A stretch of DNA of 64,000 bases from a virus, in the UHGV virus genome UHGV-0057547; one strand, written 5' to 3'. The position numbers were made by a program, and so were the translations under genes. Positions 29,209 through 64,000 of the stretch are shown here, piece by piece (position 1 is the first letter of the stretch; every line of letters begins with the position of its first letter). The notes below the pieces were generated by a model. It worked only from the letters and a program-made list of their open reading frames with translations. It was not told the origin of the DNA and ran no database searches.

Positions 29209-29452
29209 CACATATAAATTTTATTATACGGTGAGAAATTAATTAAAGATATTAAAAATGTAAAAAGTAGTCTTATAAAAATAGTGTAAGTCAATGTGGA
29301 AGGACGGTTTCACAGCTTACAATTTCCTTCTTTTTTACTATACTATTCTTATAATAATCTATATTTACTTTAATATCTCTCCGATTTGGGTATCATAGTC
29401 CTTTCAACTATGATACCCTTTTTTTATTATATAAAACAGAAAGGAGAAAAAT

Positions 29453-30006
29453 ATGGCAAAAGCAAAAAAAGAAATAAAGAAAATAATATGTACTACATGT
29501 GGAAGAGAATTGCCTGAAAAAGACTTTGGTAAATCTTATTCATTTAGAGATAAGTTAAATGGAAGATTACCGATTTGCAAAGACTGTTGTGCTAGTTTAT
29601 ATGATAAGTTAATGGTAGATTATCAAGATGAAATGAAGGCGTTATATAGATTTTGTATGATATTAGATTTATATTTTTCTAAAGATACAGTTATGGGATT
29701 AATAAGTAAGAATAGAAATTCTGAAAGTAATCTTGGATATCTATATGTATTAAAATATAATTTGGTACAATATAAAAATAAAACATTTCAAGATACAACA
29801 GCATTTGTAAATATATTTGGTATGACAGAAGAAGAGATGGAAGAAGCATTATATTTAAATACTGAAAAAACAAAAGAAGAAATAGAAAGAAAAACTAAGA
29901 AAATAGTTACTCCGGAAGTAATCAAACGTTGGGGCTCGGATTTAGAGCTAGACGATTATATTTTTCTTGAAGATAGATATAACCAAATGCTTCTTGCTTA
30001 TGATGT
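29453..30006 (+). CDS. Terminase small subunit-like protein, exon 1 (zinc-ribbon N-terminus)
   Basis: Position directly upstream of the terminase large subunit gene; ORF reads through into the intron for 6 codons; P1 pairing gatgt/gcgtc defines the 5' splice site. Confidence 0.4.
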
Positions 30007-31417
30007 AATTATGCGTCCTATGTAAAGAAATTTGCATAGAAAATCTCCTTAATTGCAGGTAATTCCTAAAGCCTTACACCAAAACGGAAGGTGAAAACCT
30101 AAACGGCAACGGTACGAAAGTAGAAAAAACGTAAGGATGGATATAAGGTTAAATCCTAAGTATCCAAACATATTTATATATGTTAAAATGGATGTTCATG
30201 CAGGTAAGATTCTAAATTAAATTATTTTAAATACTTAACTTTTAATAAGATAAATTGTATAATATAAATAAAGAGAGGTGATAAAATGGCAAAAAAGAAA
30301 TCTCATGAGGAGTTTGTTAATGAATTAAATATAAAAAATCCTAATATAAAAGTATTGAATAAATATGTAAATGTGTCTACGAAAATAATGGTTAAATGTA
30401 TAATTTGTGGAAATGAATGGATGGCAATACCTGGTAGTTTATTAAATGGAACTGGGTGTCCAAAATGTGCAAATAAAAATAAATCAAATAAACAAAGAAA
30501 GACAAAAGAACAATTTATAGAAGAGATGAAAATTATTAATCCTAATGTTAAAATAATCGGTGATTATATTAATAATCATACGAAGATAAAATGTGAATGT
30601 TTAATATGTGGGAATATATATTTTATGATACCTAAAAATTTAAGGAAAGGGCAAAATTGTCCTGAATGTGCTATGAAACAAAGAGTATCTAAAAAATCTA
30701 AAATTCATGAACAATTTATAATTGAATTAAATGATATAAATAAAAATATTAAAGTATCAAATAAATATATAAATGCAAAAACAATCATGGAATGTTCTTG
30801 TGATATTTGTGGTCATAAATGGAAATCTAATGCTGATAATTTATTAAGAGGTCATGGGTGTCCAAAGTGTGCAATAGAAAATAGTAGAGGTGAAAATAAC
30901 CATAATTGGAATCCTAATCTTACACAAGAAGATAGAGAAAATAAAAGAAATTATATGGAATATAAAGAATGGAGAAAAAATTGTTATGAACGAGATGATT
31001 ATACTTGTCAAGTTACAGGGAAAAGAGGAGTAGAATTATGCGTACATCATTTATATTCTTATAATAAATATTATTGTTTAAGAACTGCATTAGATAATGG
31101 TATAACAGTATCTAAAGAAATACATGAATTGTTTCATAAAATATATGGACGAGGAGATAACACATTAGAACAATGGGAAGAATTTATTAAAAGTTTAGAA
31201 TAATTTAATATGAATCAAAGCTCAACGACTATTCCGTAAGGAAGTAAAACCACAAGCTATTGGTGGAAGAAAAGGGAGATACCTTAACAGATAATGCTGA
31301 AGGTGAAGAAATAGTCTACTCTCATATGAAAGTATGAGCAGTTTTGTATATATACAAAACGGATTAAGTGTAGCGAACTTAATTGAATATAAAGGATAAG
31401 AATCCCTCATCCCTTTG
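30007..31417 (+). mobile_element. Group I intron carrying an HNH-type homing-endonuclease ORF
   Basis: P1 and P2 hairpin ctatg..catag; conserved 5' core; P7 elements caacGACTA ... gaaATAGTCTa; 3' end inferred from frame (ccctttg|g). Confidence 0.6.
30286..31203 (+). CDS. Intron-encoded homing endonuclease: three zinc-ribbon repeat modules plus C-terminal HNH domain
   Basis: Repeats CxxC...GxGCPKC; C-terminal CQVTG...CVHHL..YN...DNG motif; own promoter and RBS. Confidence 0.6.
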   Translation: MAKKKSHEEFVNELNIKNPNIKVLNKYVNVSTKIMVKCIICGNEWMAIPGSLLNGTGCPKCANKNKSNKQRKTKEQFIEEMKIINPNVKIIGDYINNHTKIKCECLICGNIYFMIPKNLRKGQNCPECAMKQRVSKKSKIHEQFIIELNDINKNIKVSNKYINAKTIMECSCDICGHKWKSNADNLLRGHGCPKCAIENSRGENNHNWNPNLTQEDRENKRNYMEYKEWRKNCYERDDYTCQVTGKRGVELCVHHLYSYNKYYCLRTALDNGITVSKEIHELFHKIYGRGDNTLEQWEEFIKSLE

Positions 31418-31696
31418 GTCATATCAAGAAATATGTATGAATTATTTACTCCTTAGAAAAGATAGAGGAAATGTTCAACTTCAAAAAAGTATTCAAGAAA
31501 TTAATAGTAAATTACAAGCTGACTGTAAAATGAAATTATCACAAATAGATAATGATGATGATGACAATGCTTGTTTTGGGAAATTTATAGATAGAATAGA
31601 ATTATATGAACCATGTAATAAAAAGTTACCATTTTTTGAAGATATAGATGGAATAAGACAATACTTAAAACGATGGAAACAAAAAGCCACGACTGT
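31418..31696 (+). CDS. Terminase small subunit-like protein, exon 2
   Basis: Only open frame; phase matches exon 1 (2-nt carry-over); P1 ctgt|at with IGS atatgcag. Confidence 0.4.
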
Positions 31697-32088
31697 ATAG
31701 AAATATGCAGTGGACACAGATTTAATTGCAGGTAATTCCTAAAGCCTTACACCAAAACGGAAGGTGAAAACCTAAACGGCAACGGTACGAAAGTAGAAAA
31801 AACGTAAGGATGGATATAAGGTTAAATCCTAAGTATCCAAACATATTTATATATGTTAAAATGGGTGTTCATGCAGGTAAGATTCTAAGTGATAATTTTA
31901 TATCATATGAATAAACTTCAACGACTAGAATGCAAATTCGTAGGGTGTAAGCGATTGACACTCGAAAAGGTCTGCCCTTAACAGGTAATGCTGAAGGTGA
32001 AGAAATAGTCTAGTCACTCTAGGAAACTAGGTGCTTAGAATTAACTAAGGTTTATAGTGTAGCGACTATAAGTAAATATTAACGTTTG
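31697..32088 (+). mobile_element. ORF-less group I intron (3' boundary 32088 or up to 32110)
   Basis: 5' half nearly identical to 30031-30285; contains caacGACTAg and ATAGTCTAg P7 strands; ends aacgtttg. Confidence 0.55.
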
Positions 32089-32110
32089 TTTTGCCTTTTG
32101 CGAAGCAGTG

Positions 32111-32259
32111 GAAATTAGCTAAAAATGATGTTTTAGGGGGAGAAGAAGGAATAGAAGATTATGAAGATGTAGATAAAATATACAATGAACAAAATAAGAA
32201 TAATACCGAAGTAGAAAATGAAGTAGAAGATGAAGTAGGTGAGGAAAACAATGACAAGT
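32111..32259 (+). CDS. Terminase small subunit-like protein, exon 3 (acidic C-terminus); start uncertain
   Basis: 53-codon open frame ending in a stop that overlaps the ATG of the next gene; boundary chosen by frame. Confidence 0.3.
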
Positions 32260-32401
32260 AGTCCAAAAGAAAATGTTGAAAAAGAAGAAATACTTTCCGA
32301 TGATGTCATGAAAAGTCCTCATAGAAAAAGAAGGAATTTATCCCAAAGAAAAAAAGATAGATTAAATGAAGGTATGAAAATATGGACTGCATTTTATAGG
32401 T
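32251..32401 (+). CDS. terL: Terminase large subunit, exon A
   Basis: ATG overlapping upstream stop; exon ends ttttatagg-t with P1 pairing to IGS gctta. Confidence 0.5.
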
Positions 32402-32747
32402 TAAATATTTAGCTTATTTTATTAGGTAACTAATAATCTAAACCCTTTGAATTGCTGGAAAGGACTTAGAGCCTATTGAACTACAACGTGACTAGAAATG
32501 GTGAGCGTGAATGTTTAAAAATCAATAGGATTGTTTAATCAGCAGGTAAGATTCTAAATTGCTATAAACAATATGAATAAACTTCAACGACTAGAGTTTA
32601 AACTCGTAGGCTACAAGTTATTGGTAGTCGAAGCGGAGGGCATCCTTTCATAGGATGAAGATATAGTCTGTTCTTATATGAAAATATAAGTAGTTCTTTA
32701 TTTAATAAAGAACAGTATGTATGTAGCGAATACATATGAACATTTAG
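32402..32747 (+). mobile_element. ORF-less group I intron
   Basis: Conserved 5' core (aattgctggaaagg...cagcaggtaagattctaa) directly joined to 3' core (aataaacttcaacgactag...gatatagtctg). Confidence 0.6.
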
Positions 32748-32863
32748 TAAACATCCATAGATTCGCACTGGATTTTTTGGGACTTAATTTATATCCGTTC
32801 CAAATTATATTGCTTTATATGATGAATATAATGTATAGCACTTGCCTAATATGTGCAAGGGGT
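32748..32863 (+). CDS. terL: Terminase large subunit, exon X (LxLxPFQ motif and start of P-loop ..CARG)
   Basis: Open in the phase set by exon A; ends ggggt before a P1/IGS gctcc and P2 hairpin. Confidence 0.5.
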
Positions 32864-34032
32864 AAATAGATATGCTCCATTATATAGAAATATATAATTA
32901 AAAATCAATCAAAATCGGTAAAAGTCTAAGTTTAATATTTACATTTTTTAGGAATATAAGTATAATATATAAAAGGGGTGAGATTAAATGGGTAAAATAA
33001 TAAATAAATATGATAGAATAGGTGAAACATCGATATCAAAAGAAGGATATGAAATGAAAATAATTGAATATATTGATGCAAGACATATTCTAATAGAATT
33101 TCAAGATGAACATAAAACTAGGTTAATGTGTCAATATGGTGACTTTAAATGTAGAAAAAATATTAAAAATCCATATCATCCAGCAGTATATAAAATAGGG
33201 TATTTGGGACAAGGTAAATATAATAAAAAAAATTATCAACGTATATATTGGACATGGAAAGATATGCTGAGAAGATGTTATAGTGAAGAGTACTTAAAAA
33301 GAGAACCTTCTTATAGAGGCTGTTGTGTTTGTGAAGAATGGCATAATTTCCAAAACTTTGCTAAATGGTATGAAGAAAATTATTATGAAGTTGAGAATCA
33401 AAGAATGCATTTAGATAAAGATATACTTGTAAAAATGAATAAAACATATAGTCCACAAACTTGTATATTTGTTCCACAAATAATTAATAGTTTATTTATA
33501 ACATCTAAGGCTATAAGAGGAGAATATCCTATTGGCGTTTCAAGAAAACAGAATAAATTAATTGTTCAAATTAATAAATATGATGAAAATATGAAAAAAT
33601 CAAAATATACAATGGTAAAAAAATTTGAAATAGAAGAAGTAAATGAAGCATTTTTTTGCTATAAAACAGAAAAAGAAAATGAAATAAAGAAAAGAGCCGA
33701 TTTATTTAAAGAATATATTCCAAAAAAATTGTATAATGCATTATATAAATATAAAATTGAAATAACAGATTAAATATGATAATACCGAGGTAAGATAGAA
33801 AATTAAAAAGTTCTATCCACTGTAGAGCATAGAGATTGAACCTTTGTAAGAACTATTATACAATAGTTCTTTTTTAATTGCAAAGAATAAAATATCTCCA
33901 AGAGTGATTGACACCTTACTATTAAGTTAAAGGTGAAAATATATGCCATACTGAGCTAGAATTGACTAGCTGATGAAAATGAGGGAAACCTCCAGAGGTT
34001 AAGATAAAAAACTTAACGTTAATAATGAATAG
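32864..34032 (+). mobile_element. Type-2 (T-family) intron carrying an HNH endonuclease ORF; 3' part is element T1
   Basis: P1 ggggt/gctcc, P2 attatatagaaatatataat, caaaatcggt block, internal promoter, ORF, then about 270-nt T1 element. Confidence 0.5.
32988..33773 (+). CDS. Intron-encoded HNH-family homing endonuclease (Bacillus-phage type: WTW-DML-RRC...CCVCEEW..F..F..W...LDKDIL motif)
   Basis: Diagnostic conserved motif set read directly; own promoter and RBS aaaagggg. Confidence 0.55.
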   Translation: MGKIINKYDRIGETSISKEGYEMKIIEYIDARHILIEFQDEHKTRLMCQYGDFKCRKNIKNPYHPAVYKIGYLGQGKYNKKNYQRIYWTWKDMLRRCYSEEYLKREPSYRGCCVCEEWHNFQNFAKWYEENYYEVENQRMHLDKDILVKMNKTYSPQTCIFVPQIINSLFITSKAIRGEYPIGVSRKQNKLIVQINKYDENMKKSKYTMVKKFEIEEVNEAFFCYKTEKENEIKKRADLFKEYIPKKLYNALYKYKIEITD

Positions 34033-34135
34033 TTATCGAAATCGTATATGACAGCAATATTCCTTTGTTGTAAAGCAATATTATATCCAAATAGTTTAAT
34101 TGTAGTTTCTTGTTCAACTAAGGAGCAAGCGAGAT
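34033..34135 (+). CDS. terL: Terminase large subunit, exon e34 (P-loop ..LSKSYMTAIF.. and LIVVSCSTKEQAR Q-motif)
   Basis: Joins exon X in phase to give ICARGLSKSY Walker A-like loop; ends gcgagat with IGS gtctc. Confidence 0.5.
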
Positions 34136-35567
34136 ATAATGTCTCCTATATTAAGTGATTAGTATAGCAAATCTTTTGAATTGCTGGAAACTCCTAAAGC
34201 TCAATTCACTACAACGTAAGGTTAAATCCTAAGCGTGAATGTTACGAAAGTAGAAAAAAGTAATTGAGATGGTATAAGGTTAAATCCTAAGTACTTTTAC
34301 AATGGACAATCAGCAGGTAAGATTTATATTTATTTTACTTTACTTTTAATAATTAATTTCGTATAATTTAAGTAAATGGAGGTGAAATATTATGGCATGG
34401 AAATATGAAGATGTGAAAAAGTATGTAGAATCATTTGGTTATAAATTAATATCAAAAGAATATAAGACTTGTAAAGATAAACTTCATTTAATGTGTCCTA
34501 ATGAAAGTGATTTTATTGTAAGATTTGATAATTTTAAAAATGCTAAACAACGTTGTAAATGTGATAAATGTAAAGGTAGAAATCCAAGAATGTTTTCTTA
34601 TGAATATGTAAAAGAATACATAGAAAAAGAAGGGTATAAATTAATATCAAAAGAATACAATGGAAATAAAAAACGTATAGAATTAGAATGCCCAAATGGT
34701 CATAAATGGAAAGTAAGATTTACTGATTTTAAAAATGGAAGAAGATGTTATTATTGTTCTTGTTGTTATAAACCTACCATTGGAGAAATTAGAATGAGAT
34801 TATCAAAATATGGTTATACATTGTTATCTGAAGAATATAAAAATGCAAATGAAAAAATTAATGTAAAATGCCCTAATGGTCATAAATATCCTACTACATA
34901 TCATAATTTTGATAATGGTAAAAGATGTCCATACTGTTATAATAAATATAGTAAAGGTGAGTATAGACTTATAAATTTATTTAATAATTATAAAATAAAC
35001 TATAAACATCAATATATTTTTAATGATTGTAGAGATATAAATCCTTTGCCATTTGATTTTTATTTATATGATTATAATTGTTGTGTAGAATTTGATGGAG
35101 AAGGGCATTATGAACCTAGAAATTGGAATGGAGCTTCAGATGAAAAAGCAATAGAAACATATAAAATAACGGTATTACATGATAAAATTAAAACACAATA
35201 TTGTAAGGATAATAGCGTAAAACTCATAAGAATACCATATTGGGAATTTAATAATATAGAAAACATTATTTGTCAAGAATTAAATATTAAAAGAAAACAA
35301 AGAAGAAAAGGTAATAAATTAAAATAAATATGAATAAACTTCAACGACTAAGTATCCTAGTAGTCTAGGTAGAGGAAGAGGTCTTATATTAATAAGATTG
35401 TGATATAGTCTGCTCTCATGCGAAAGCATGAGCAGTTCATAAAAGAACGGATAGAATAGTAACGATATTCTATTGAACATAAGGAATCTTATAAAGGAGA
35501 AGATAGCTAAAGAGCTATGTTCTCAATCGAAAATGTTAAATAGAGAAATTGCTAAAGTAGTCACTGG
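34136..35567 (+). mobile_element. Group I intron carrying a Zn-ribbon/DUF559 homing-endonuclease ORF (3' end approximate)
   Basis: P1 gagat/gtctc, P2 ctatattaagtgattagtatag; conserved 5' and 3' cores flanking the ORF. Confidence 0.55.
34392..35327 (+). CDS. Homing endonuclease, Zn-ribbon repeat modules plus DUF559/Vsr-like PD-(D/E)xK nuclease domain
   Basis: Three modules YEYVKEYIE..GYKLISKEY...CPNGH...F..FKNG.RC; C-terminal PLPFDFYL...VEFDGEGHYE...KLIRIPYWEF. Confidence 0.6.
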   Translation: MAWKYEDVKKYVESFGYKLISKEYKTCKDKLHLMCPNESDFIVRFDNFKNAKQRCKCDKCKGRNPRMFSYEYVKEYIEKEGYKLISKEYNGNKKRIELECPNGHKWKVRFTDFKNGRRCYYCSCCYKPTIGEIRMRLSKYGYTLLSEEYKNANEKINVKCPNGHKYPTTYHNFDNGKRCPYCYNKYSKGEYRLINLFNNYKINYKHQYIFNDCRDINPLPFDFYLYDYNCCVEFDGEGHYEPRNWNGASDEKAIETYKITVLHDKIKTQYCKDNSVKLIRIPYWEFNNIENIICQELNIKRKQRRKGNKLK

Positions 35568-35631
35568 TACTAATGAAACAGTGGTTATCTTTAACAATGG
35601 TAGTACCATTCAAGTTTAATGCTTTGCACAT
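35568..35631 (+). CDS. terL: Terminase large subunit, exon e35 (boundaries approximate)
   Basis: Only open frame; phases fit e34 (1-nt) and e38 (2-nt carry-over); P1 gcacat/gtgtgt. Confidence 0.35.
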
Positions 35632-35877
35632 TGAGTAATTAGTGTGTATAACCGATTGAATTGCTTGTAAATCCTAAAGCTAACTAAACTACAACGTAAC
35701 CTGAAAAGGTAAGCGTGAATGTAGCGAAAGCAGAAAAAATTAGTTAGATGGTATATGGTTAAATCCTAAGTACTTTTACAATGGAAGTCTAGCAGGGAAG
35801 ATTCTAAAATTATTTAAATTAAATATTTGACTTTTAATAATATAAGTTGTATAATATAAATAAATGGAGGTGATAAT

Positions 35878-36834
35878 ATGTCAAAAATAATGTGGGATGA
35901 AAAATCAATAAAAAAATTTGTTGAGCAATATAATCATGAATTCATTGAAATTATAGAATTTAATAACATAAGAAGTTTAATAAAAATTAAATGTAAAAAT
36001 AAAAAACACAAACCATTTGAAATAAAATTTACATCATTTAGACAAACTATGCTAAAAAATGGAAATTCTTGCAAAGAATGTAAAAAAGAAGCAAAAATGT
36101 TAAAAAGAGAAGATGTAGAAAACCTAATTAGAGAAAGAGGACTTATTTGGCTAGAGGGAGAGTATATAAGTAATGATACAAAAAATTTATTAGTATGGTG
36201 TGGAAATATTAATCATGAACCATTTTTAACAAGTCAAAATTATATATTATGTAATAATGGTAATAGTTGCAAAAAATGTGGTATAGAAAATAATGCAAAT
36301 AACAAAAGACTTTCATATGAGTATGTATATAACTATATAAAAAATGAGGGTGATGAACTATTATCAAAAACTTATGTAAACAATTCACAAAATTTAAAAA
36401 TTAAATGTGGTAAATGTAATAATGTATTTGAAACTTCATTTGGGCACTATCAAAATAAAGATAGAAGATGCTTATGTAAAGCTCAATCAAGAGGAGAATA
36501 TGAAATTAAACGAATATTTGATAAATATAATTTAATTGAAAATGTAGATTATGAATGTCAAAAAAAATACGAAGGATTAATTGGGGTTGGTGGTAGAAAA
36601 CTTTCTTATGATTTCTATATCAATAATACATTAATAGAATATCAAGGTTCTTATCATGATGGAACTGCTAGAAAACAAACAGATGAAGGATATGAGATAC
36701 AAAAGGAACATGATAAAAGAAAAAAAGATTATGCTAAAAATAATAACATTAATTTATTAGAGATATGGTATTGGGACTTTAATAATATAGAAAATATACT
36801 TATAGAAAATTTTAATTTAAATAATAATGAATAA
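35878..36834 (+). CDS. Homing endonuclease, Zn-ribbon repeats plus DUF559/Vsr-like domain
   Basis: Same modular architecture as 34392..35327; C-terminal LSYDFYI...IEYQGSYHD...NLLEIWYWDF. Confidence 0.55.
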   Translation: MSKIMWDEKSIKKFVEQYNHEFIEIIEFNNIRSLIKIKCKNKKHKPFEIKFTSFRQTMLKNGNSCKECKKEAKMLKREDVENLIRERGLIWLEGEYISNDTKNLLVWCGNINHEPFLTSQNYILCNNGNSCKKCGIENNANNKRLSYEYVYNYIKNEGDELLSKTYVNNSQNLKIKCGKCNNVFETSFGHYQNKDRRCLCKAQSRGEYEIKRIFDKYNLIENVDYECQKKYEGLIGVGGRKLSYDFYINNTLIEYQGSYHDGTARKQTDEGYEIQKEHDKRKKDYAKNNNINLLEIWYWDFNNIENILIENFNLNNNE

Positions 36835-37086
36835 CCTTCAACGAACAAGTATCCTAGTAGTCTAGGTAGTGGTCGGTATCCTTAGTAAAGGATAATGATA
36901 TGTTCTGCTCTCATGTGAAAGCATGAGCAGTTTATGTGATTAATTAAAATTCACAAATAAACGGTATAAGGTATAACGAACCTTATATGAACACAAATGC
37001 AGTAAACGCTTCTCAAAATACAAGAGGTAAATTTTTCATATCACTTTACATTTTTTAATAATTAGAGTATAATATAAACAAAGGGG

Positions 37087-37956
37087 GTGATTGAATTGAA
37101 ATGGACTAAGGATATGGAGCAATACTTAATTGATAATTATAATAAATTAACTATTGAAGAATTAGCTAAAAATATAGGAGTAACAAAATCCTCAATAATA
37201 AATAAAGCTTTTTCATTAAAAATAACAAATAATGTTAAAAATAAAGATAGAGGAAATATTAATATATTTAAAAATATAAATTCAGAAGAAAGTGCTTATT
37301 GGTTAGGATTTATATATGCTGATGGTTATATAGTTAAAAGTGAAAATGATAAAAAACATCATAATTATGAATTAGGTATAGAACTTCAAGAATCTGATAT
37401 TTCTCATTTGAAAAAATTTAATAAAATATTTAATGATTATTATAAAATAAAAACAAGAATCAGAAAAATGGATTCATTGGATATTTTAAATGGAAATGAA
37501 GTTTCAAATAGATTAAATAAAACTTGTTTGATAAGAATATATAATAAAGAAATAGTTAATGATTTAATAAAAAATAATATTGTTCAAAATAAAACTAATT
37601 CAGATATATTTCCTATTATAGATGATGACAATATGTTTTTACATTTTTTAAGAGGATATATTGATGGCGATGGTTCTTATGTTGTTGATAGTAAAAATAG
37701 ATACATAATATCAATTCAAGGTAATAATAAAAAATGTTTTGAATTTATATCTAATAAGTTATTAACAAGTTTTAATATTAATTCATATATAACAAAAGAT
37801 AAAACAGGTTGGAAATTAAATATAAGAAAAAAAGATGATGTTTTAAAATTAATAGATTTAATGTTTAATAATTCAAATATTTATTTAGATAGAAAATATG
37901 AGAAAGTAAAAGATATGAAAAAAGCCGTCTTTAATAGAAATATTAAAGATAATTAG
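37087..37956 (+). CDS. LAGLIDADG homing endonuclease (double-motif, single-chain)
   Basis: Two LAGLIDADG motifs: LGFIYADGYI and LRGYIDGDGS; GTG start after RBS aaaggggg. Confidence 0.7.
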   Translation: MIELKWTKDMEQYLIDNYNKLTIEELAKNIGVTKSSIINKAFSLKITNNVKNKDRGNINIFKNINSEESAYWLGFIYADGYIVKSENDKKHHNYELGIELQESDISHLKKFNKIFNDYYKIKTRIRKMDSLDILNGNEVSNRLNKTCLIRIYNKEIVNDLIKNNIVQNKTNSDIFPIIDDDNMFLHFLRGYIDGDGSYVVDSKNRYIISIQGNNKKCFEFISNKLLTSFNINSYITKDKTGWKLNIRKKDDVLKLIDLMFNNSNIYLDRKYEKVKDMKKAVFNRNIKDN

Positions 37957-38280
37957 AGAACAAAATCGGTCATAGTAAATCGTAAGATTAAGCTGATAAG
38001 AGAGCCTAAGTCCTTATAGGATATGGTAATACCGAGGTAAGATAGAAAATTAAAAAGTTCTATCCACCGTAACGCATAGAGATTGAACCTTTGTGAGAAC
38101 TATTATACAATAGTTCTTTTTTAATTACAAAGAATAAAATATCTCCAAGAGTGTTCTCCACCTTATCATTAAGTTGAAGGTGAAAATATATGCTGGACTG
38201 GGTATGAATTGACATACCATAATGCGAGGAAACTCCTAGAACTAGAGGATAAAAAGCCTTTAGGATAACAAAACGTTAAG

Positions 38281-38325
38281 ATGCCATGTACTCGTGGTTG
38301 ATGAGTATAGAATGATACAAGGAGT
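38281..38325 (+). CDS. terL: Terminase large subunit, exon e38 (Walker B ..CHVLVVDEYRMIQG)
   Basis: Open frame; ends ggagt paired to IGS gctcc of the next intron. Confidence 0.45.
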
Positions 38326-39865: not shown

Positions 39866-40021
39866 TTTTGATACATTAAACTCAGTATTAAGACCATTCT
39901 TAAACTGTGTTAGAATACCAAAATTTAAGAATAGAGATGATGGAAAATATGCAGATTATCCATCAGAGGAAAACCAAGAGATTTATTTGAGCAGTGCATT
40001 AAAACTAGTGCAAACTATGGT
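39866..40021 (+). CDS. terL: Terminase large subunit, exon e39
   Basis: 52-codon open frame in AT-rich DNA; phases consistent with both flanking exons. Confidence 0.45.
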
Positions 40022-40341
40022 GAAATGTAGATAGCTATAGTTGAGTATCAATCAAAATCGGTCATATGTATAGTGATATACATGGTAAGAAAGACTAAGT
40101 GTTAATTTAACATAAGTTGATACCGAGGTAAGTTAAGGAACTAAAAAGCCTTATCCACTGTAACGCATAGAGATTGAACCTTTGCAAGAACTATTATATA
40201 ATAGTTCTTTTTTAATTGCAAAGAATAAAATATCTCCAAGAGTGATTGACACACGCTACATTTATTGTGTGAAAATATATGCTGAACTTATAGGAAACTA
40301 TAAGAACTAAAGGATAAAAAGCCTTTAGGATAACAATTTGG
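40022..40341 (+). mobile_element. Standalone ORF-less T-family intron (element T3); 5' boundary 40022 or 40033
   Basis: P1 atggt/gctat, caaaatcggtcatatg block, about 300 nt, shares covarying hairpins with T1, T2 and T4; both boundary choices give a consistent terL frame. Confidence 0.45.
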
Positions 40342-45098: not shown

Positions 45099-45491
45099 GA
45101 TTAGCTCCCTATATGGAGTGATTCATATAGCAAACTCTCTGAATTGCTTGTAAATCCTAAAGCTAACTAAACTACAACGTGATTGGAAACAATGGGCGTG
45201 AATGTGGCGAAAGCAGAAAAAATTAGTTAGATGGTATATGGTTAAATCCTAAGTACTTTTACAATGGAAGTCTAGCAGGTAAGATTCTAAATTACTATAA
45301 GTGATATGAATAAACTTCAACGACTATTGAAATAATTGTAAGAACCTTATTACAATTAAAGTAAAGTACATTCAAGTGAATGGAAGTAGAGAGTGTCTTA
45401 TTTAATTAATGTAAGATAATGATATAGTCTCAACGTTTAGCGAAAGCTAAAGAAGTTCATAAGAGAACTGCATAAGAATAACGAACTTATG
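45099..45491 (+). mobile_element. ORF-less group I intron (3' boundary within 45483-45509)
   Basis: P1 ggagt/gctcc, P2 ctatatggagtgattcatatag, complete 5' and 3' cores without ORF. Confidence 0.55.
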
Positions 45492-53107: not shown

Positions 53108-53253
53108 ATGGCTACACTATTTGCTATAAAAGATGCAATAGATTTAAAAATAACTAAAAAAGGTGAATCAGCAGTTTTCACTACAATAGACTACTTAAAT
53201 GAATGTCAAATACAAATGGACTCAGAACAAGTATATGCTCTTAAAAAAGGAGT
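53108..53253 (+). CDS. Major tail protein-like, exon 1
   Basis: Exon ends ggagt paired to gctcc; spliced product ends in an Ig-like-looking C-terminal exon. Confidence 0.4.
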
Positions 53254-54610: not shown

Positions 54611-54639
54611 TTCTCAAGTGGTAGAACAGGAACATTAAC

Positions 54640-55026
54640 AATGAACTGTAACTAGTACAGCGTATGTAAAGAAATTTACATAGGACACAACCTTAAAACC
54701 AGTAACTCCTAAAGCTCAACAACTACAACAAAGGATAGAATCAGAAACCTTTGTGAATGTGAGGAAACTCTGAAACAATAGTTGAGATGATATATGGCGA
54801 GAGCCTAAGTATTGTAACAATGGATGTTTGGTCGCCAAACTTAGAAATAAGAAGGTCAAACGACTATGATTTGAAAGAATCATAAAGCCTCAAGCGAATG
54901 GAGGAAGAAATGGGTTGCCCCTAACAGATAATGCTGAGGGTGAAGAAATAGTCTAGTCACTCTAGGAAACTAGGTGCTTAGAATTGACTAAGGTTTATAA
55001 GTTGCGATTATAAATAAATATTAACG
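54640..55026 (+). mobile_element. ORF-less group I intron directly downstream of the previous intron, separated by a putative micro-exon within ~54611-54650
   Basis: P2-like hairpin atgtaaagaaatttacat, 5' core aactcctaaagctcaacaactacaac...tagttgagatgatatatgg (ctcaaca/tagttgag covariation), P7 caaacgactatg...gaaatagtctag. Confidence 0.5.
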
Positions 55027-55381
55027 TCAAGTAATGGATGAAGACTTCTTATGTATGATGCTTGGTGCTACTAAAGGTGCAGATGGTAAAATATCTGTAA
55101 CATCTTCAGTTCCAAACCAAAGTTATACAGCAGAAGGTACTTTCAGAACTACTTCATTAAATGGAGACCAATACAAAAAAATAAAATTCTACAACTTAAA
55201 AGCACAAGTTTCAGCTGACTTAACTTTATCTGCTTCTGATGTTTCTGAATTCTCATTAGTATTAGATATAATGGCTGACGATGCTGGTAAAATATTAGAT
55301 ATAGAAAACACTGCTGGTGGAGTATCTGCTGGATTTAATGAACCTGAAATTGTTTCTATAAAAGCTAAAGCTGATAAATAA
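55027..55381 (+). CDS. Major tail protein-like, terminal exon
   Basis: Open frame begins immediately after ...attaacg of the intron. Confidence 0.4.
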
Positions 55382-56502: not shown

Positions 56503-59500
56503 GTGAGTGAATTTGATATAAGAATTGGTACGCAACTAGATACTAGTAAAGCGTTACAACAATTGATGGAATTCGTCAAAAAATATGACAATAAAGAAAA
56601 GATAAATATAGACATAGGCCAAACAAAAGGTGCTAATAACATAAAAAACACAACCAAAGCTATGAAAGAAATGCAAAAGATAGCTAAGGCGTTAGGAAGC
56701 ACAAAGATTGACATAGGTGGCAATATAGGTAAGGCTACTGGTGAAGCTACTAAATCATTAGAAAATAGTATAGACAAACAAGCCAAATCTATTGCCAAAA
56801 TAACTAGTAATGCACAAAGAGATTTAACTAAAGATGCTCAAAAAGGTATTGGGAATAGTCTTAAAGGTATCAATGCAGAAATGAAAGATACCCAAAGAAA
56901 TGTCGAGAGAATGATTAGTACTCTTGAACGAGCTAAGAAAGTTGAATTAATAGACCAAAAAGGTTTAGATGAAGGGTTAGCTAAATTAAAAGATATGAAA
57001 GCTAATCTTAATATAGGTAATATTGACAATGTAGAAAAAAAATTAGGGGAAGTAGCAAGTGACTATAAGAAATTAATGACAGATGCAACTAAGGAAGCAT
57101 TTAATAATGTTGAAGTATCAGGGTTATTAGAAGACTTAAAAGTTGTCAGAGAAGCTATGTCAGCTAAAAACATGGATTTAAGTGGTGTTGATACTTTAAT
57201 TTCTAAAGCTAAACAACTTACTTCTTTAAGTGTTGACCAAATGTTACAACAGTACAAAGAATTAAGACAAGTATTTAGTAAAGAATTAAAGATACCATTA
57301 GGTTTAAGTGGCATAATGAACGCTGAAACTGCAATTAAAAATGTTCTAGATTATAAAAACAAACTAACTGCTAAAGTTTCAGTTGAAACAAATTCAGAAC
57401 AAATAGATATTTTAAAAGATAAAATAATAAGATGTGATGAAGTTGTTGAACAACTTAGAGGAGATTTAAACTTAGTAGGTAGAAGTACAGCATTAAATTT
57501 AATGGAACAAGCTAATGAAAGAGAATTAGATACATTAAGCGCTAAATTAAAAAAATGTAAAAATGATTATGCTAGTTTAGAAAAAGAAAGAGAAAGATTA
57601 AATAAAGATAGTAGATACCTTGGAACAGAAGATTTAAACAACATAGAGAAACAATCATTAGCCATAAAGAAAAACCTTGATAGTTTAAATGTTGGAAATT
57701 TAAATACTGATAAAATAAATAAAGTTACTGGTGACATAGATAATTTAAGAAAAACAATAGAATCAACTGGTAATTCAGCTAAAAAATTAGATATAGAAGC
57801 AACAGTTAAAGTAGATATGAAAAATGCTCAAGACCAATTAAATGGTATGTATTCTGCTTTAATAAAATCTAATAAATCTACCGTAATGGTTAAAAAATAT
57901 AAAGATGAATTAGAAGGATTATTTGATTTATCTAAGACTAACCCAGGTGTAGCACTAGACAAAATAAGTGGTTTTATAGAAAAAGTAAATAAAGAAGCCA
58001 AGAATAAAGGTTTAGGTAAAATAACTGGTGGTTTAGACCAATACAAACAATACTTAAAAGATTATGAATCATTAGTTAAAAAAGCTAGTGGTACTACTGA
58101 TATTGGTTTTGCAAAAGCTTACAAATCAGAAGTTACACAAATAGAAAAAGCATTAGACCAATTAGAAAGTGGATTTAACCAAACTCAAAAATCTATGGCT
58201 AAATCTTTGAGATTAGAGTCAATTAATAAGAATACTCAAGAATTTATTAATCAAGTTGAGAAATCTATTAAGAAAACTCAAGAATATAAAAAAGAATTAC
58301 AAACTCTTAATAATGATATAAATTTTGATGGTCTTACTTCTAAATTAGGTCAAAAAGTCAAAGAAGAATTTGACGGAATGATTAATAAAACTAATCAATT
58401 AGAAAAAAGACTTGGCAATATGTTATCATCAGGTAACATAAATACTACTGAACTATCTAAGTTAAAATCAGAACTTGAAAGTACTTTTTCCGGACTTTCT
58501 AAACTTAAGGATACTAGTATAAAAATTAAAACTGATGAAACTGTATCAGGACTTAATAAAATCAAAAAAGATTTAGAAACATTAGGACAAGATACTAGTC
58601 AAATAGAAAGAGTTATTAACGCATTAAAAGAACTTAAAGCCAATTTCAATGGTGGTACAGCAGGTTATAAAGAATTAGCCAATGGAATAAAATCTATTGG
58701 AAAAGATAATAACTTAGAAAAACTAAATAGTTCTTTAGAAAAATCAGTTAAGAAATTTAATAACTTAGCTAAAGCTGTCGGAGAACTAAAGGTTAAAAAT
58801 ATAGGTAATATAGACCAAGGTGCTTTTCAATCTTTAGATAGTCAAGTTGCACGAATACAATCTCATATAGAAGGTTTAAATAAAAATGATATATCTTTAA
58901 TAGATGTTAAAAAAGTTGAAGCAGAAGTAAATGAATTAAGCAACTGTGTAGAAAAAATGAGTAGTGAATTAACTCAATATAGTAAATATTTGGAAGAATA
59001 TAAAAGATTATCTAGTCAAGCAGGTAAAACAAATGATGTTAATTTAGCTACAAAATATCAACAAGAAGCAGAAGGTATAAAAGGTGTATTAACTCAATTA
59101 GAAAGTGAGTTTACACAAGCTCAAAAATCTATTGCTCAAGGATTAAAAACTGATGCTTTCTCTAATGCTAATGAAAAAATGTCTTCTGAAATTAATAAAT
59201 CAATTAAAACAGTTGATAATCTTAAAGAAAAACTTAATACATTAGATAAAGATGTACATTTTGAAAATATGACATCTGAATTAGGTAAAGAATTAAATAG
59301 TCAATTTGATACTTTAGCTAATAAAGGTGAAGAATTAAAAGATAAATTAAATAAAATATTAGCATCTGATAACGTAGATATTTCTGCTTTAAGTAAAATT
59401 AAAAAAGAAATAAGCGAATTTGCAAGTGAAGTTAATAATTTAAAAAATTCTGCAATGGATAATGTTATTAGAGAATCTTTTGATAACATTAAAATACCTA

Positions 59501-61630
59501 ATTTAAATAAACAACTAGAAGCCGTTAAAGATTTAATGTCACTTAAAAATATGGACACTAGTGGTATAGATACTTTAATAGAAAGAACTAAAAAATTATC
59601 AAGTTTAAGCGTAGATAAAATAGGTCAAGAGTTTAAGGAAATACAAAATGCACTTGGTAAAGAAATTAATTTACGTTTAGGTTCTAGTGGTATCAAAGAT
59701 ATAGAATCTGCATTAAAAGTTATATTACAATATAGAAATGAATTAAAAAATAAAATAGCAGTTGAAACAGATTCGTCAAAAGTAAAAGACCTTAATAACC
59801 AATTAGAAAAAACTGAGAATATAATAGAAAAGCTTAAAGGTCAAACTAGTGGTGGACTTGGTGCAAGTTTAATTAGCGATGCTAATAATAATAACTTAAA
59901 ACAATTAGAAGATACTGCTAATGGATTAGAGAAAACATTCTCTAATTTAGAAAATGAAGTAAATAAATTAAACAGCGAAGCATTGAATAAGGTTGACATA
60001 AGTCAATTAAGGGAAATGAATGAAGTTGTTAATGATGTAAAGAAAAATTTAGCATCTATTGGAGAAGGAAATGTTAATGTTGATTCAATAAATAAAACAG
60101 CACAAGATATAGAAAAATTAAAAAGACTAATAGAAAACACTAAAAAGACAATTAGTGATATGAAATTAGAAGTTTCATTTAATATTAAATCAAATGAAGC
60201 AGAACAATATTTAGCAGGTTTTGAATCAGCTTTATTAAGATTAGGTAAATCAACTAGTGGAATAAATGATTTAAAAAGTGAATTTGAAAGTATAAAAAAT
60301 TCAGCTAACGGAAATTTAAGTAGTGCCATAAAAATGATTGATGACTTTATTAATAAATTAAAACAAATGGGTAGCAAACAAGGTCTAGGTAATATAAGTG
60401 GTACTATATCTCAATATAAACAATATGCTAAAGAATTACAACAAGCTATGAGTGGAGCATTGAAATCTAGTGGTTCTGATACAGCTAAAGGATTTGAACA
60501 ACAAGCTGATAGAATAAAAAATGCTATGCAACGTTTAACTTCAAGTTTCAAAGAATCACAAAGAGAATCGGCTAATGCTTTTAACAGTAGTTCATTTAGT
60601 GGTTTTTCTTCTAAATATGAAGCTGAAATAAATAAAGTTGAAAAAAGTATAAACAGATTTAAATCATCAATGCAAAATTTAGATAAAGCTGTAAACTTCA
60701 AAAGTTTCCAAAGTGATGTAGGTAGAGGTTTATCTGAACAATTTGACCAAATAATGGCGAAAGCCGAACAATTAAGAGATAAACTAAAGAGTGCATTATC
60801 TTCAGGTACATTTGATATAAGTGAAATAAATAGAATAAAAGATGAATTAAAACAAGTTGAACAAGAAGCAGATTCATTAAAACAAAAATCTATTGTATTG
60901 AAATGTGCCGAAAGTATATCTGAATTAGAAAAGCTTAGTAGTAAACTAAGAGATATAGGTGGAGATACATCACAAATAGACAGATTAAGAGATGAATTTG
61001 TTTCACTTGGTTCAGGTATAAAAGAGGGTACTGCTGGAATAGATGATGCAATTTCTAAACTGAAATCTTTATCTTCGGAAGCACAAAGAACTTTTAGTTC
61101 TTTTGAATCATCTACTGGTAAAATAGGTTCTTTTGGTTCTAAAATACAAGGTTTCTTTGGTTCTATTAAGGATTCATTTAGGAATTTTACTATTGGTGAA
61201 TTAATGGCTGATGGTATAAATCAAGCTGTTTATCAAATAAAAGATACTATATCAGGTTTAGATGAAGCAATGTCCGAATTTAAAAGGGTTGCTCCTGATA
61301 ACTTTAGTTTAAACACATCTAACTTACAAAGTGTTGCTAATGAAGCAAGAGAAATAGGTATTAGTGTTGGGCAATCAGTAGAAGATGTTATCACTGGAAT
61401 GAGTACTGCATTACAAGCTGGTGCAGGCGACATTAAAACAGCTTCTGAAATAGCTAAAAGTTCTGCTATATTCCAAAATGTTACAGATATGGATGCAAAA
61501 AGTGCCTCAAAAGCTATTTCTTCAATGGTTAACCAATATTATGATATGGATTCAGCATTAAATCAAGTTGACCACGGTGTAGGTAAATCTGTAAAAGGAT
61601 ACAATAACTTAACTGAAGCGATGGATTTGG
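56503..61630 (+). CDS. Tape measure protein, exon 1 (about 1709 aa; internal approximately triplicated coiled-coil module)
   Basis: Length, coiled-coil repeats, position; ORF read-through of 11 codons into the intron; P1 tggt/gccg. Confidence 0.6.
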
Positions 61631-62695
61631 TAATTGATTTGCCGTTTATATTAGAAATAATATAAATTATTAGAGGGCAAAATCGGTGAAGACTAAATAT
61701 TTTAATTTATTTACTTTTAATAAAAAATATGGTATAATAATATAAAATAGGAGGGGATATAATGAGAAGATTGAGTTATGAATATGTAAAAGAGTATATA
61801 GAAAATTTTGGTTATAAATTATTATCAAAAGAATATAAAAACAATAAAACTGAATTAGAAATACAATGTAATGATTGTGGGAATATATTCCATATGAGAT
61901 TTAACAATTTTAAAGATGGTAAACATAGATGTGAATGTAAGAGCAAACCATTAGTTTTGACATATGAATATGTTAAAAATTATATTGAATCATGTGGATA
62001 TAAATTATTATCAAAAGAATATAAAAATAATGCAACCTATTTATTGGTTTGGTGTGGAAATCCTAATCACAAACCTTATAAAGTTAAATTTAATAATTTT
62101 AAAGATTGTAATAGTAGATGTCCTGAATGTAATACAACTTCAAAAGGTGAAGAAAAAATAAAAGAAATTCTAATAAAATATAATATAAAATTTAATCAAC
62201 AATATTTATTTAATGATTGTAGAAATACAAGACCACTTCCATTTGATTTTTATTTACCACAGTATAATATTACAATAGAATATGATGGGAGACAACATTA
62301 TAAATTAGATTGTTTTAATATGAATTTATTAGATTTAATGAATTTGAAATATAATGATAATAAAAAAACACAATATTGCAATAATAATAATATAAAACTT
62401 ATAAGAATACCATATTGGGATTTTAATAATATAGAAAAAATACTTAAAAAAGAATTAAAAGTAAATTGAATAAAGTACAAGTTAATACCGAGATAACTTA
62501 TTAGATTACGAAAAGGCTAATAAGTATTGTAGAGCATAGAGGATGAATAAATATAACTCCTCCAAGAGTGTCCTCCATCCTAACGTAAAGACGAGGATGA
62601 AAATATATGCCATACTGAATTGGAATAGACCAATTGATGAAAATGAGGGAAACCTCCAGAGCATAAGATAAAAAGCTTATGGATAATAACAATAG
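61631..62695 (+). mobile_element. Type-2 (T-family) intron carrying a Zn-ribbon/DUF559 endonuclease ORF; 3' part is element T4
   Basis: P2 tttatattagaaataatataaa, caaaatcggtgaagactaa block, internal promoter, ORF, then T4 with covarying hairpins. Confidence 0.5.
61762..62469 (+). CDS. Homing endonuclease, Zn-ribbon repeats plus DUF559/Vsr-like domain (shortest paralog)
   Basis: PLPFDFYLPQYNITIEYDGRQHY...NNIKLIRIPYWDF. Confidence 0.55.
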   Translation: MRRLSYEYVKEYIENFGYKLLSKEYKNNKTELEIQCNDCGNIFHMRFNNFKDGKHRCECKSKPLVLTYEYVKNYIESCGYKLLSKEYKNNATYLLVWCGNPNHKPYKVKFNNFKDCNSRCPECNTTSKGEEKIKEILIKYNIKFNQQYLFNDCRNTRPLPFDFYLPQYNITIEYDGRQHYKLDCFNMNLLDLMNLKYNDNKKTQYCNNNNIKLIRIPYWDFNNIEKILKKELKVN

Positions 62696-62708
62696 AAATT
62701 ACGCTGGT
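62696..62708 (+). CDS. Tape measure protein 13-nt micro-exon (aaattacgctggt) between two introns
   Basis: Flanked upstream by T4 3' end and downstream by P1 loop/IGS gccag complementary to its ctggt end; frame depends on exact splice sites. Confidence 0.35.
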
Positions 62709-63099
62709 TAGAATTAGCCAGGCTATATGGAGACATATAGTACAAATCTCTTTTGAATTGCTGGAAAGGACTTAGAGCCTATTGAACTACAACGTAGATG
62801 GAAACATCAAACGTGAATGTTAAAAAATCAATAGGATTGTTCAATCAGCAGGTAAAATTCTAAGTGATAATTTATCATATGAATAAACTTCAACGACTAT
62901 CCCTTGGATTTGCTAATTTAGTAAATCAATAGGAGTACGGCTCAAGCGATTGGAGTGGGTGAGAATCCCTTAAATGGAAGTGGAAGAGGACTTATAAAAG
63001 TTCAAGATATAGTCTACTCTCGTAGGAAATCTACGAGCAGTCCTTTTTTTGGACGGTATGTATATAGCGAATACATATGAATATTAAGGAATAACTTCG
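62709..63099 (+). mobile_element. ORF-less group I intron in the tape-measure gene (3' end 63089-63099)
   Basis: P1 ctggt/gccag, P2 ctatatggagacatatag, full 5' and 3' cores, P7 caacgactatc...agatatagtctac. Confidence 0.55.
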
Positions 63100-63473
63100 C
63101 AATTTCATCTGATGGTGTAACAGAAGCATTACAACGTGGTGGTTCTGTATTATCTAACTATGGAGTAGATTTAAAAGATTCCATTGCAATGATAACTGGA
63201 GCAAATGAATCTTTACAAGACCCTGCTCGTATAGGTAATGGTTTAAAATCTATAGCAATTAACCTTTCAGGTATTAAAACAAATGCACAAACAGGTGCTC
63301 TTGAATTAAATAAAACAGCAAAAGCATTACAAGAAACTGCTAAAATAGATATATTTACTGATAAATCTAAAACACAAGTTAAAGATATTGTTAGTATACT
63401 AGATGAAGTAAAAGATAAATGGGCTTCTTTGACTGATGTTGAACAAAAAGGATTATCAGAAGCCATAGCAGGT
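63100..63473 (+). CDS. Tape measure protein, further exon
   Basis: Open TMP-like frame from the intron end; exon ends gcaggt before another intron. Confidence 0.5.
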
Positions 63474-64000
63474 AGTATGTAAGATTTTGTCTTATTAATT
63501 TATTGAATAGACATTATACAAAAATAGTAGTATAATATAAGTAATAAATTAATAAGGAGGGAACTTTCATGGGGAAAAGTTCAAAAGATAAATATGAATT
63601 AGGTAAAGAAATGTTTTTACAAGGGAAAACAACAATGAATATAGCAAAAGAATTAAATATATCAAGAAGTAGATTTTCAAGATATTTAAGGGAGTGTGGA
63701 ATAGATAGTCAACAATATCATAAATTTCCTATAGATGAAAATGTTTTTAATGTAATAGATACAGAAGAAAAAGCGTACTGGTTAGGATTTTGGTTTGCAG
63801 ATGGATATGTAAGTTCAAATAGAAATACAGTAGGTATTGATTTAAAACCGAGCGATTTAAATCATCTAAATAAATTAAAAACATTTTTAAAATGGAAAGG
63901 CGATATAAAAGTAGAAGAAACTAGATGTAGATTAAATTTTAGAAATGATAAAATTAAGAATGATTTAATAAAATATGGATGTGTTCCAAATAAATCATTA
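63474..64000 (+). mobile_element. Start of a further intron in the tape-measure gene carrying a LAGLIDADG endonuclease ORF (continues beyond window)
   Basis: Internal promoter + RBS then ORF; intron identity inferred from context. Confidence 0.4.
63569..64000 (+). CDS. LAGLIDADG homing endonuclease (partial, runs off the window)
   Basis: First LAGLIDADG motif LGFWFADGYV; N-terminal HTH-like region. Confidence 0.6.
   Translation, partial: MGKSSKDKYELGKEMFLQGKTTMNIAKELNISRSRFSRYLRECGIDSQQYHKFPIDENVFNVIDTEEKAYWLGFWFADGYVSSNRNTVGIDLKPSDLNHLNKLKTFLKWKGDIKVEETRCRLNFRNDKIKNDLIKYGCVPNKSL

Follow-up and report, generated by a model that had tools for sequence, protein, structure and literature searches.

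The window analyzed here is a 64,000-nt stretch of the virus genome UHGV-0057547, in which phage genes for packaging, head, and tail proteins are interrupted by 16 complete intervening sequences. These lie between positions 30005 and 63089, all on the + strand, and are followed by a 17th that starts at 63474. We consider it highly probable that this is the late module of a large SPbeta-like phage that was repeatedly invaded by mobile group I introns. An earlier, sequence-only reading of the window had claimed at least 15 introns in about 34 kb, which the 16 complete elements and the truncated 17th bear out. The complete elements sum to 15,394 nt, corresponding to 46% of the intron-bearing region (taken as 29453-63089 for this calculation) and to approximately one intron per 2.1 kb. 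They belong to two families, type A with 12 and type B with four members. The YonG-like gene contains two introns, the large terminase gene (TerL) seven, the portal, YonD-like, and major capsid genes one each, the tail tube gene two, and the tape measure gene two in addition to the truncated one.

The GC content is approximately 25% across the whole window. From 27.9 kb onward, the late genes are arranged in the order YonJ-like phosphoesterase, YonG-like protein, large terminase (YonF), portal (YonE), YonD-like protease/scaffold, YonC-like protein, major capsid (YonB), head-tail proteins, YomU-like tube, and tape measure. This order matches Bacillus phage SPbeta and two intron-free metagenomic relatives, the contigs L007 and L009, in which the Pfam domains YonG_N, YonD_N, YonB, YomW, YomV, and YomU_Tube were detected. 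Contigs of 173-198 kb from IMG/VR are 96-99% identical to the window in the terminase, and no close relative of the phage was found in the phage database or among the GTDB representative genomes.

The intervening sequences were detected using nhmmer profiles built from alignments of their 5' and 3' cores, alongside repeat analysis and motif mapping. The repeat analysis revealed repeats of 150-200 nt, many of them near-identical. The profiles matched exactly 12 type-A 5' cores, 12 type-A 3' cores paired with them, and four type-B cores, all on the + strand and within 29997-63099; no match to the intron-core profiles was obtained in positions 1-29400, in L007, or in L009. The 12 type-A copies are mutually homologous (nhmmer E = 1e-21 to 1e-74). 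Copies A2, A3, A8, X, A11, and B3 contain no open reading frame (ORF) and are 341-408 nt long each. The P7/J8-7-like motifs quoted in the sequence-only reading are indeed present: TTCAACGACTA occurs 10 times inside the region and GATATAGTC, with at most one mismatch, 12 times. An occurrence of TTCAACGACTA at 20795 was dismissed as a chance match, with no profile support at that position.

Each of the interrupted genes was mapped by tblastn in consecutive pieces onto uninterrupted homologues, which are approximately 50-72% identical, without loss of residues. As had been claimed, the structural genes are interrupted yet piecewise colinear with their homologues, and removal of the insertions restores long frames, all of which are intact at the lengths given below. 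Assigning junctions by the rule "U before, G last" combined with local alignment scores gave wrong or ambiguous results and was replaced by the use of empty sites and residue conservation.

The large terminase gene (32239-41428) is the most heavily interrupted one. In homology searches with the uninterrupted TerL sequences P0006, P0009, and L007 as queries, its exons were located at 32239-32401, 32748-32863, 34033-34134, 35485-35614, 37000-37028, 38276-38324, 39865-39999, and 40341-41428. Intron sequence makes up 7,378 of the 9,190 nt, and the coding sequence of about 1.8 kb, in which the internal exons measure 116, 102, 130, 29, 49, and 135 nt, carries seven introns. The spliced product of 603 aa has 433 residues identical to the 602-aa TerL of L009, with 9 gap columns. 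The first intron, A3 (32402-32747), is an ORF-less type-A copy with a canonical U as the last exon nucleotide, U(-1), and omegaG as the last intron nucleotide. It is followed by B1 (32864-34032), A4 (34135-35484), A5 (35615-36999), B2 (37029-38275), A6 (38325-39864; empty site GGAG|GTTTTG), and the ORF-less B3 (40000-40340). The B3 junction codon TGG encodes a W that is conserved across all homologues. A predicted junction-spanning TerL peptide is ..MIQGGFDT...

Upstream, at the position of the small terminase gene, the YonG-like gene consists of exons 29453-30005, 31396-31676, and 32085-32261. It is colinear with the YonG_N proteins of L009 and L007 (331 and 307 aa) and yields a spliced ORF of 336 aa. 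Its introns are A1 (30006-31395 or, equivalently, 30005-31394) and the ORF-less A2 (31677-32084), both of type A. Downstream of TerL, the portal gene (exons 41466-42363 and 43676-44241; 487 aa after splicing) is split by the type-A intron A7 (42364-43675). The YonD-like prohead protease/scaffold gene (exons 44524-45097 and 45503-46707; 591 aa) is split by the ORF-less type-A intron A8 (45098-45502), the junction of which restores an invariant PGAMG. The major capsid (YonB-like) gene (exons 47288-47736 and 49071-49638; 338 aa) contains the type-A intron A9 (47737-49070). All three genes are colinear with their homologues, as is the YomU-like tail tube gene (exons 53108-53252, 54597-54648, and 55027-55381; 183 aa). 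The latter harbors the type-A intron A10 (53253-54596), with a junction restoring KKG-D-NYISF, and intron X (54649-55026), a divergent, ORF-less type-A copy with 5' and 3' core matches at E ~1e-30.

In the tape measure gene (56503-64000), homologue colinearity defined the exons 56503-61631, 62696-62708, and 63090-63473, after which the gene is interrupted again. Here, the type-B intron B4 (61632-62695) is separated from the ORF-less, A3-like type-A intron A11 (62709-63089; canonical U(-1)/omegaG) by a mini-exon of only 13 nt (AAATTACGCTGGT). The residues (V)NYAG encoded at this place are kept in uninterrupted homologues; across both junctions, the homologues read AMDLANYAGNNFAISS and the spliced window AMDLVNYAGNNFAISS, and the predicted junction-spanning peptide is ..DLVNYAGNNFAISS... 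The 17th intervening sequence (63474-64000) is cut by the window end. The tape measure frame stops two codons past ..SEAIAG (63473), where the homologues go on with KTQAQ. It is followed by a promoter-like site, a ribosome-binding site, and, from 63569, an ORF for a LAGLIDADG protein paralogous to the B2 endonuclease (E = 4e-15); this ORF continues past the window end. The RNA core of this element is located outside the window.

Comparison with the close relatives (96-99% identity) revealed exact empty sites for 12 of the 16 introns, among them A1, A2, A3, B1, A4, A5, B2, A6, B3, A7, and A9, at which the flanking exons abut precisely. L004 is devoid of A1, A2, A3, B1, A4, A5, B2, A6, A7, and A9; L003 of A3, B1, B2, A6, and B3; L005 of A1, A5, and B2; L002 of A7; and L006 of A9. 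The A4 copy of L005 has no ORF. Conversely, L003 and L004 carry an extra type-B intron (L003:4790-5115 and L004:8335-8658) at a site within TerL exon 6 of the window that is empty here, and the YonG-like gene of L004 contains an extra type-A intron at another site (L004:6909-7281). Consequently, TerL harbors seven introns in the window, five in L005, three in L003, and two in L004. Such differing intron sets in near-identical phages are a signature of mobile introns.

For type A, a structure was derived by RNAalifold from 13 ORF-trimmed sequences, namely 11 introns of the window (A2 was left out) and two from relatives. It comprises P2, a long-range P3, P4, P5 with extensions, P6, P8, P9, P9.1, and P9.2; P7 was added as a pseudoknot, and 16 helices were scored. 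Standard pairs were found in 93.6% of cells, versus 33-42% when the partners were slid by 1-3 columns. Both sides were changed in 51 of 75 pairs, and none of 500 shuffles attained these figures. Pairing is complete (100%) in P3 and P7, and a double compensatory change distinguishes the P7 of A5 (CGAACA...AUGUUC versus CGACUA...UAGUC elsewhere). The G-binding P7 is flanked by the conserved motifs CAACGACUA and GAUAUAGUC, and omegaG is the last nucleotide in all 12 copies, at a conserved position 9-12 nt past the last hairpin. Type A thus has the P3-P9 core with P3/P7 pseudoknot and the J6/7 and J8/7 sequences that characterize group I introns. Furthermore, matches to the cores were obtained among annotated or known introns from phages of Staphylococcus, Enterococcus, Bacillus, Listeria, and Clostridium. 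The comparative structure, the matches to Rfam model RF00028 detailed below, and the exact empty sites support the group I interpretation of the sequence-only reading for the 12 type-A elements, which are best classified as IA2-like group I introns and are presumably active in splicing. Inteins were rejected as an explanation, since the insertions shift the frame and contain stops and their own starts, and since Pfam scans detected no Hint domain. Group II introns were rejected as well: the window gave no group II Rfam match, the ORFs encode endonucleases and not reverse transcriptases, and the ORF-less copies measure only 341-408 nt.

RNAalifold analysis of 16 diverse type-B copies yielded P6, an invariant P7 (GCAUA/UAUGC), P7.1, P8, and P9.x, with compensatory changes in 21 of 31 pairs. 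The P7 helix is flanked by the R- and S-like sequences GUAACGCAUAGAG and AAAAUAUAUGC. A long-range P3 is formed by six nucleotides upstream of AAAA-UCGGU (J3/4-P4) and six nucleotides between P7.1 and P8. This helix covaries with more than 12 variants, among them UCAAUC/GAUUGA (B1), GAGAAC/GUUCUC (B2), GAGCGA/UCGCUC, CUGACC/GGUCAG, and UUCCGU/ACGGAA. Together with P7, the P3 covariation gives the order P3-P4-P5-P4'-P6-P7-P7.1-P3'-P8-P7'-P9, with the P3/P7 pseudoknot of IA-type group I introns. B3 folds with a z score of -4.1, and its P1 hairpin (UGCAU|UA..UAGUGCA) places a U·G exactly on the junction. U(-1) and a terminal G are present in B1-B4 and in the extra copy of L003/L004. These comparative data support a group I topology with P7.1 for the four type-B elements. 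Their relatives are found in C. difficile phiCD211-like phages, Streptococcus phages, Staphylococcus phage 6ec (in the tape measure gene), and IMG/VR contigs. On an unrelated IMG/VR contig, a type-B copy is located approximately 0.8-1.4 kb from RF00028 matches of 62.4 and 21 bits (L015:8938-9556, - strand), indicating that mixed type A/type B clusters occur elsewhere.

Ten of the 16 complete introns carry an endonuclease ORF of approximately 0.7-1.1 kb, and all 10 match phage homing endonuclease families. In type A, the ORFs are located in the P6 loop, and in type B in the P5 loop or near the 5' end. The A1 ORF (30286-31203) encodes an HNH protein with treble-clef Zn-finger repeats (PHROG 559/119), the B1 ORF (32988-33773; P5 loop) a protein of PHROG 953 that is HNH by PHROG labels only, with no Pfam match, and the B2 ORF (37087-37956; near the intron 5' end) a LAGLIDADG protein (Pfam LAGLIDADG_3, 1.7e-14). 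The remaining seven ORFs, in A4 (34392-35327), A5 (35878-36834), A6 (38581-39705), A7 (42713-43516), A9 (47986-48912), A10 (53491-54417), and B4 (61762-62469), encode paralogues with two to four Zn-ribbon repeats and a C-terminal nuclease domain; the A4 and B4 proteins match PHROG 559/9084. The C-terminal domain shows an invariant D...E..G..H...D..K and is present in more than 500 phage records. Matches of the Zn-ribbon/nuclease proteins to Pfam DUF2726 and PvuRts1I-N are weak, while PHROG 9084/7140 are annotated as homing or intron-encoded nuclease. PDB sequence and profile searches for the nuclease fold of the paralogues returned only Zn-ribbon noise. A possible class for these paralogues is that of the EDxHD or Vsr-like homing endonucleases, relatives of which include I-Bth0305I and which are characterized by a catalytic E-D-x-H-D motif on a PD-(D/E)xK-like fold. 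The occurrence of one endonuclease family in both intron types indicates that endonuclease genes move between ribozymes.

Six of the endonuclease ORFs are preceded, at a distance of 20-25 nt, by the best + strand sigma-70-like matches (10-11 of 12 positions), followed by GGAGGTG. These sites (30235-30263, 32938-32966, 34339-34367, 35827-35855, 37045-37073, and 38530-38558) belong to a conserved cassette, repeat family D7. Irregular starts were observed in two of the genes. In A7 (42640-42715), there is no ATG, GTG, or TTG where the paralogues start, and the homologous N terminus is open back to approximately 42640; in A10 (53480-53500), the listed ATG and the GGAGGTG ribosome-binding motif overlap. 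The two genes either use nonstandard starts or are at the onset of decay.

Under the group I intron reading, the late genes would be transcribed straight through the introns, and each endonuclease gene would be expressed from its own upstream sigma-70-like promoter and GGAGGTG ribosome-binding site. The intron RNA would fold and excise itself by two guanosine-dependent transesterifications, leaving joined exons that encode full-length late proteins. In coinfections, the endonucleases would cut intron-less alleles, into which the intron would then be copied. Such homing would explain the mixed intron complements of the relatives.

Several observations weigh against this reading. Splicing is deduced from DNA, and the sequences are metagenome-type assemblies. 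At the gathering threshold, RF00028 gave a single match in the window (32392-32690, A3, 92.8 bits), and a permissive scan of 35 kb (E ≤ 10) gave three, adding 31687-32033 (A2, 45.7 bits) and 31179-31338 (3' half of A1, 25 bits). A8 alone scored 46.9 bits in a local search (E = 6.6e-11) and the ORF-less A4 copy of L005 79.3 bits. Thus, A2 and A8 remain just below 50 bits, and only A3 and the ORF-less L005 copy are above the gathering threshold. X and A11 gave no RF00028 match in the local scan. No match was obtained for type B in the window, for B3 alone at E ≤ 10, or at eight loci with compact homologues (E ≤ 1-10). At this threshold, the RF00028 scan, which was the check suggested in the sequence-only reading, reports one intron of the window, which does not refute the observation. 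The model misses most copies because the ORFs separate the ribozyme halves beyond what it can bridge, so that ORF-containing copies are not scorable as a whole, and because type B is not recognized. As the sole test, Rfam was rejected for this insensitivity. Finally, promoter-like matches show no overall enrichment in this AT-rich DNA (154 versus 152.8 expected), so the endonuclease promoter sites are suggestive only. The other points on this side concern the 5' boundaries of type A and are considered below.

Against this background, other explanations were weighed. The silence of RF00028 on type B would be expected if these four elements were a different structured insertion in the same genes, such as another ribozyme class or a protein-dependent element. 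This is quite improbable in view of their group I helix order with covarying P3, P6, P7.1, P8, and P9.x, the R- and S-like sequences (GUAACGCAUAGAG / AAAAUAUAUGC), the P1 U·G at the 5' junction, the terminal G, and the LAGLIDADG and other homing endonucleases that they host. It is also conceivable that the interruptions are not repaired at the RNA level at all, the module being a decaying or defective prophage or a set of separate fragments and the repeats being selfish insertions such as endonuclease cassettes or elements resembling miniature inverted-repeat transposable elements. The insertion sequence (IS)-type transposases encoded upstream in the same window would be in line with this. Decay, however, would hardly leave every exon in frame without stops, full-length spliced products that align with intron-free homologues with few gaps, conserved exons of 13, 29, and 49 nt, conserved and covarying ribozyme cores inside the insertions, and different intron subsets in independent contigs of 173-198 kb with 96-99% exon identity. 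We regard it as very improbable. Chimeric joining of metagenomic reads at the repeated intron cores is a concern given the abundance of near-identical 150- to 200-nt repeats and the fact that the relatives are metagenome contigs too. Yet each intron sits between the correct consecutive exons, in order and in phase, and the same junctions recur in the independent contigs L002 (99.4% identity), L003, L005, and L006. Since chimeric joins would not yield colinear genes, an assembly artefact is hardly credible.

Group I introns are preceded by a U, the last nucleotide of the 5' exon, which is wobble-paired with the guide-sequence G in P1. Among the type-A introns, this rule holds only for A3 and A11. 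It does not hold for A2, A4, A5, A6, A7, A8, A9, A10, and X or for the extra type-A intron of L004, and A1 is ambiguous. Counting A1, the last exon nucleotide is thus G or A, and not U, in 10 of the 12 copies. The anomalous introns are preceded by an exon G (A in A4), and their excised DNA has the form U...G. P1 is nevertheless well defined and varies in concert with the insertion site (GAGA/UCUC, CAAG/CUUUG, GGGG/CCCC, GGAG/CUCC). The nucleotide facing the guide G is the first intron nucleotide in the 10 anomalous introns; it is U in nine of them and forms a U·G wobble in eight. X has U-A at the wobble position, and in A2 (G|A) it is an A that faces the guide G, so the wobble is not strictly kept at the first intron position.

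Several lines of evidence place the anomalous junctions one position upstream of the canonical site. The guide-paired U is absent from intron-less alleles (AGA|AAT, CAAG|CAG, and GGAG|GTT in L004). The nucleotide after the conserved terminal G is that of the intron-less allele in six of seven testable cases and restores a conserved residue (N, A, G, A, D), while the alternative gives Y or V. Canonical cleavage with ligation after the terminal G would leave one extra nucleotide and create stops, e.g., AGA UAA in A4 and GGA GUA UAA in A10; the host genes of the anomalous introns would therefore be frameshifted. For A4, A5, A8, A9, and A10, no in-frame "U before, G last" alternative was found near the junction. 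Based on this, we infer that the 5' cut of the anomalous type-A ribozymes would fall one nucleotide ahead of the canonical position, unless another kind of correction is at work. Two ways of rescuing a canonical site were rejected: use of a second hairpin with U·G (CUAUGU..GCAUAG) as the real P1 would retain 20 nt and break the frame, and mutual compensation of three extra U's in TerL (A4, A5, and A6, +3 in total) is contradicted by exons 4-6, which match the homologues in the uncompensated frame. In the literature searched, nothing usable was found as a published precedent for non-U group I 5' splice sites.

A tentative model, to which we give somewhat less than an even chance, is that 5' splice sites are defined in a shifted manner in the main type-A lineage. 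Three to four Watson-Crick pairs ending in a purine would be contributed by the exon, the intron's own first U would face the guide G, and the cut would be made 5' of this U. Alternatively, splicing could be canonical, 3' of the P1 wobble U, with the proposed junctions off by one and either a different junction residue or a 3' site other than the conserved G. This would be in line with the P1-closing U·G in eight of the 10 anomalous introns and with the fully canonical solution U38325/G39865, which is available for A6 alone and gives G->V. It would also agree with introns of near-identical core, which use U as the last exon nucleotide: besides A3 and A11, comparison with intron-less alleles showed canonical sites for the tail-tube intron of RODI and for the three TerL introns of SIOphi, and the NAR 2025 study tested the splicing of the latter by experiment. 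However, the intron-less alleles of L003, L004, and L005 do not have the U, the post-G nucleotide fits them and restores conserved residues, five introns have no in-frame canonical pair, and A2 and X have no wobble at that position (two of 10). We consider canonical splicing rather unlikely.

A6, A7, A8, and A10, located in four different genes, all follow an exon GGAG (38321-38324, 42360-42363, 45094-45097, and 53249-53252) and have the guide GCUCC, which suggests guide-directed spread to new sites. If the shifted splice site proves true, a U would not be needed in the target, which could explain how the GCUCC guide colonized four genes after GGAG and how the introns of this lineage became as dense as one per 2 kb. 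Ten introns with the wobble U inside the intron would, if confirmed at the RNA level, contradict the most conserved 5' splice-site rule of group I introns, and such a shifted boundary would be of interest to ribozyme mechanists and engineers.

That phage genes can contain group I introns with homing endonucleases is textbook knowledge, and the td, nrdB, and nrdD introns of phage T4 contain homing endonuclease genes with their own promoters. The elements described here resemble the T4 introns in combining a ribozyme core with a free-standing-type endonuclease gene that is located in a peripheral loop and has its own expression signals, and in the same homing logic. T4 differs in its endonuclease families, target genes, and far fewer copies. 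SPbeta corresponds to the window in its virion module, by order and homology (YonJ, YonG, YonF TerL, YonE, YonD, YonB, YomU). It also carries group I introns, but in the ribonucleotide reductase genes bnrdE/bnrdF, and its late module is uninterrupted, whereas here the late module is the target.

The closest likeness in ribozyme type is to the Herelleviridae, including Twort (orf142), the silviaviruses Romulus and Remus (two TerL introns with EDxHD endonucleases), and SIOphi of the Bastillevirinae. Their introns share the IA2-like ribozyme (75-88% core match by BLAST), the TerL and tail-tube targets, the presence of several introns per gene, and PHROG 559 endonucleases in TerL introns. Three introns are located in the Twort tail-tube gene orf142, and three each in TerL and Pol of SIOphi; according to a 2025 overview of phage introns, these three genes represent the maximum of three introns per gene. 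The same overview gives six to seven introns per Herelleviridae genome and approximately 13 in Staphylococcus jumbo phages. The window, in contrast, has seven introns in its TerL gene and 16 within 34 kb. Furthermore, the SIOphi TerL and RODI tail-tube introns keep the wobble U in the exon, which 10 of the 12 type-A introns do not.

Heavy colonization of core genes (TerL, major capsid protein, polymerase) by group I introns and homing endonucleases is also known from crAss-like Zeta and Jug phages, which likewise stem from gut or animal metagenomes. The Zeta genomes (145-192 kb) contain up to 14 introns and three inteins, with the major capsid protein in five fragments, and the Jug genomes (360-402 kb) a mean of 18.5 group I introns. 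These are phages of Bacteroidota with approximately one intron per 13-20 kb, versus 2.1 kb in the low-GC, SPbeta-like phage described here, which shows no inteins and no recoding. Moreover, Jug introns average approximately 206 nt and contain no ORFs, while 10 of 16 introns in the window harbor endonuclease genes. The statement of the sequence-only reading that no comparable density is known was too strong in view of the Zeta, Jug, and Staphylococcus jumbo phages, although the local density still exceeds theirs. Thus, intron-rich phages were already known; the local density (one intron per 2.1 kb, seven in one gene) is above that in all sources compared, and the lineage (low-GC, SPbeta-like) and the target (a whole late module) are new.

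The density shows how much selfish RNA an essential viral late operon can carry. Exons are as short as 13, 29, and 49 nt, and two introns are only 13 nt apart. This density also raises the question of how seven ribozymes in a single transcript attain their folds and are spliced in sequence, with no exon skipped, in the course of a lytic cycle. Relatives with two, three, five, and seven TerL introns and with empty and alternative sites represent a natural experiment on intron gain, loss, and homing. The type-B introns constitute a second ribozyme family that is invisible to Rfam. Intron-split loci defeat gene callers as well as the Rfam threshold (one of 16), and viromics pipelines will therefore overlook or fragment the terminase, portal, and capsid markers.

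Further features were observed in the window. Upstream of the late module, mobile or nuclease genes at 1638-2684, 7744-8874, and 9013-10155 encode an IS1595-like transposase, an IS605 OrfB/TnpB-like protein, and a T5orf172/MUG113-domain protein. A 780-aa ORF on the - strand (12201-14543) has a local GC content of 0.30-0.38, compared to approximately 0.25 around it; it gave no Pfam match, and its sole match was PHROG 25468 (function unknown). Within the YonD-like protease/scaffold gene, positions 45736-46008 consist of D/E/K-rich tandem repeats with units of approximately 42-102 nt.

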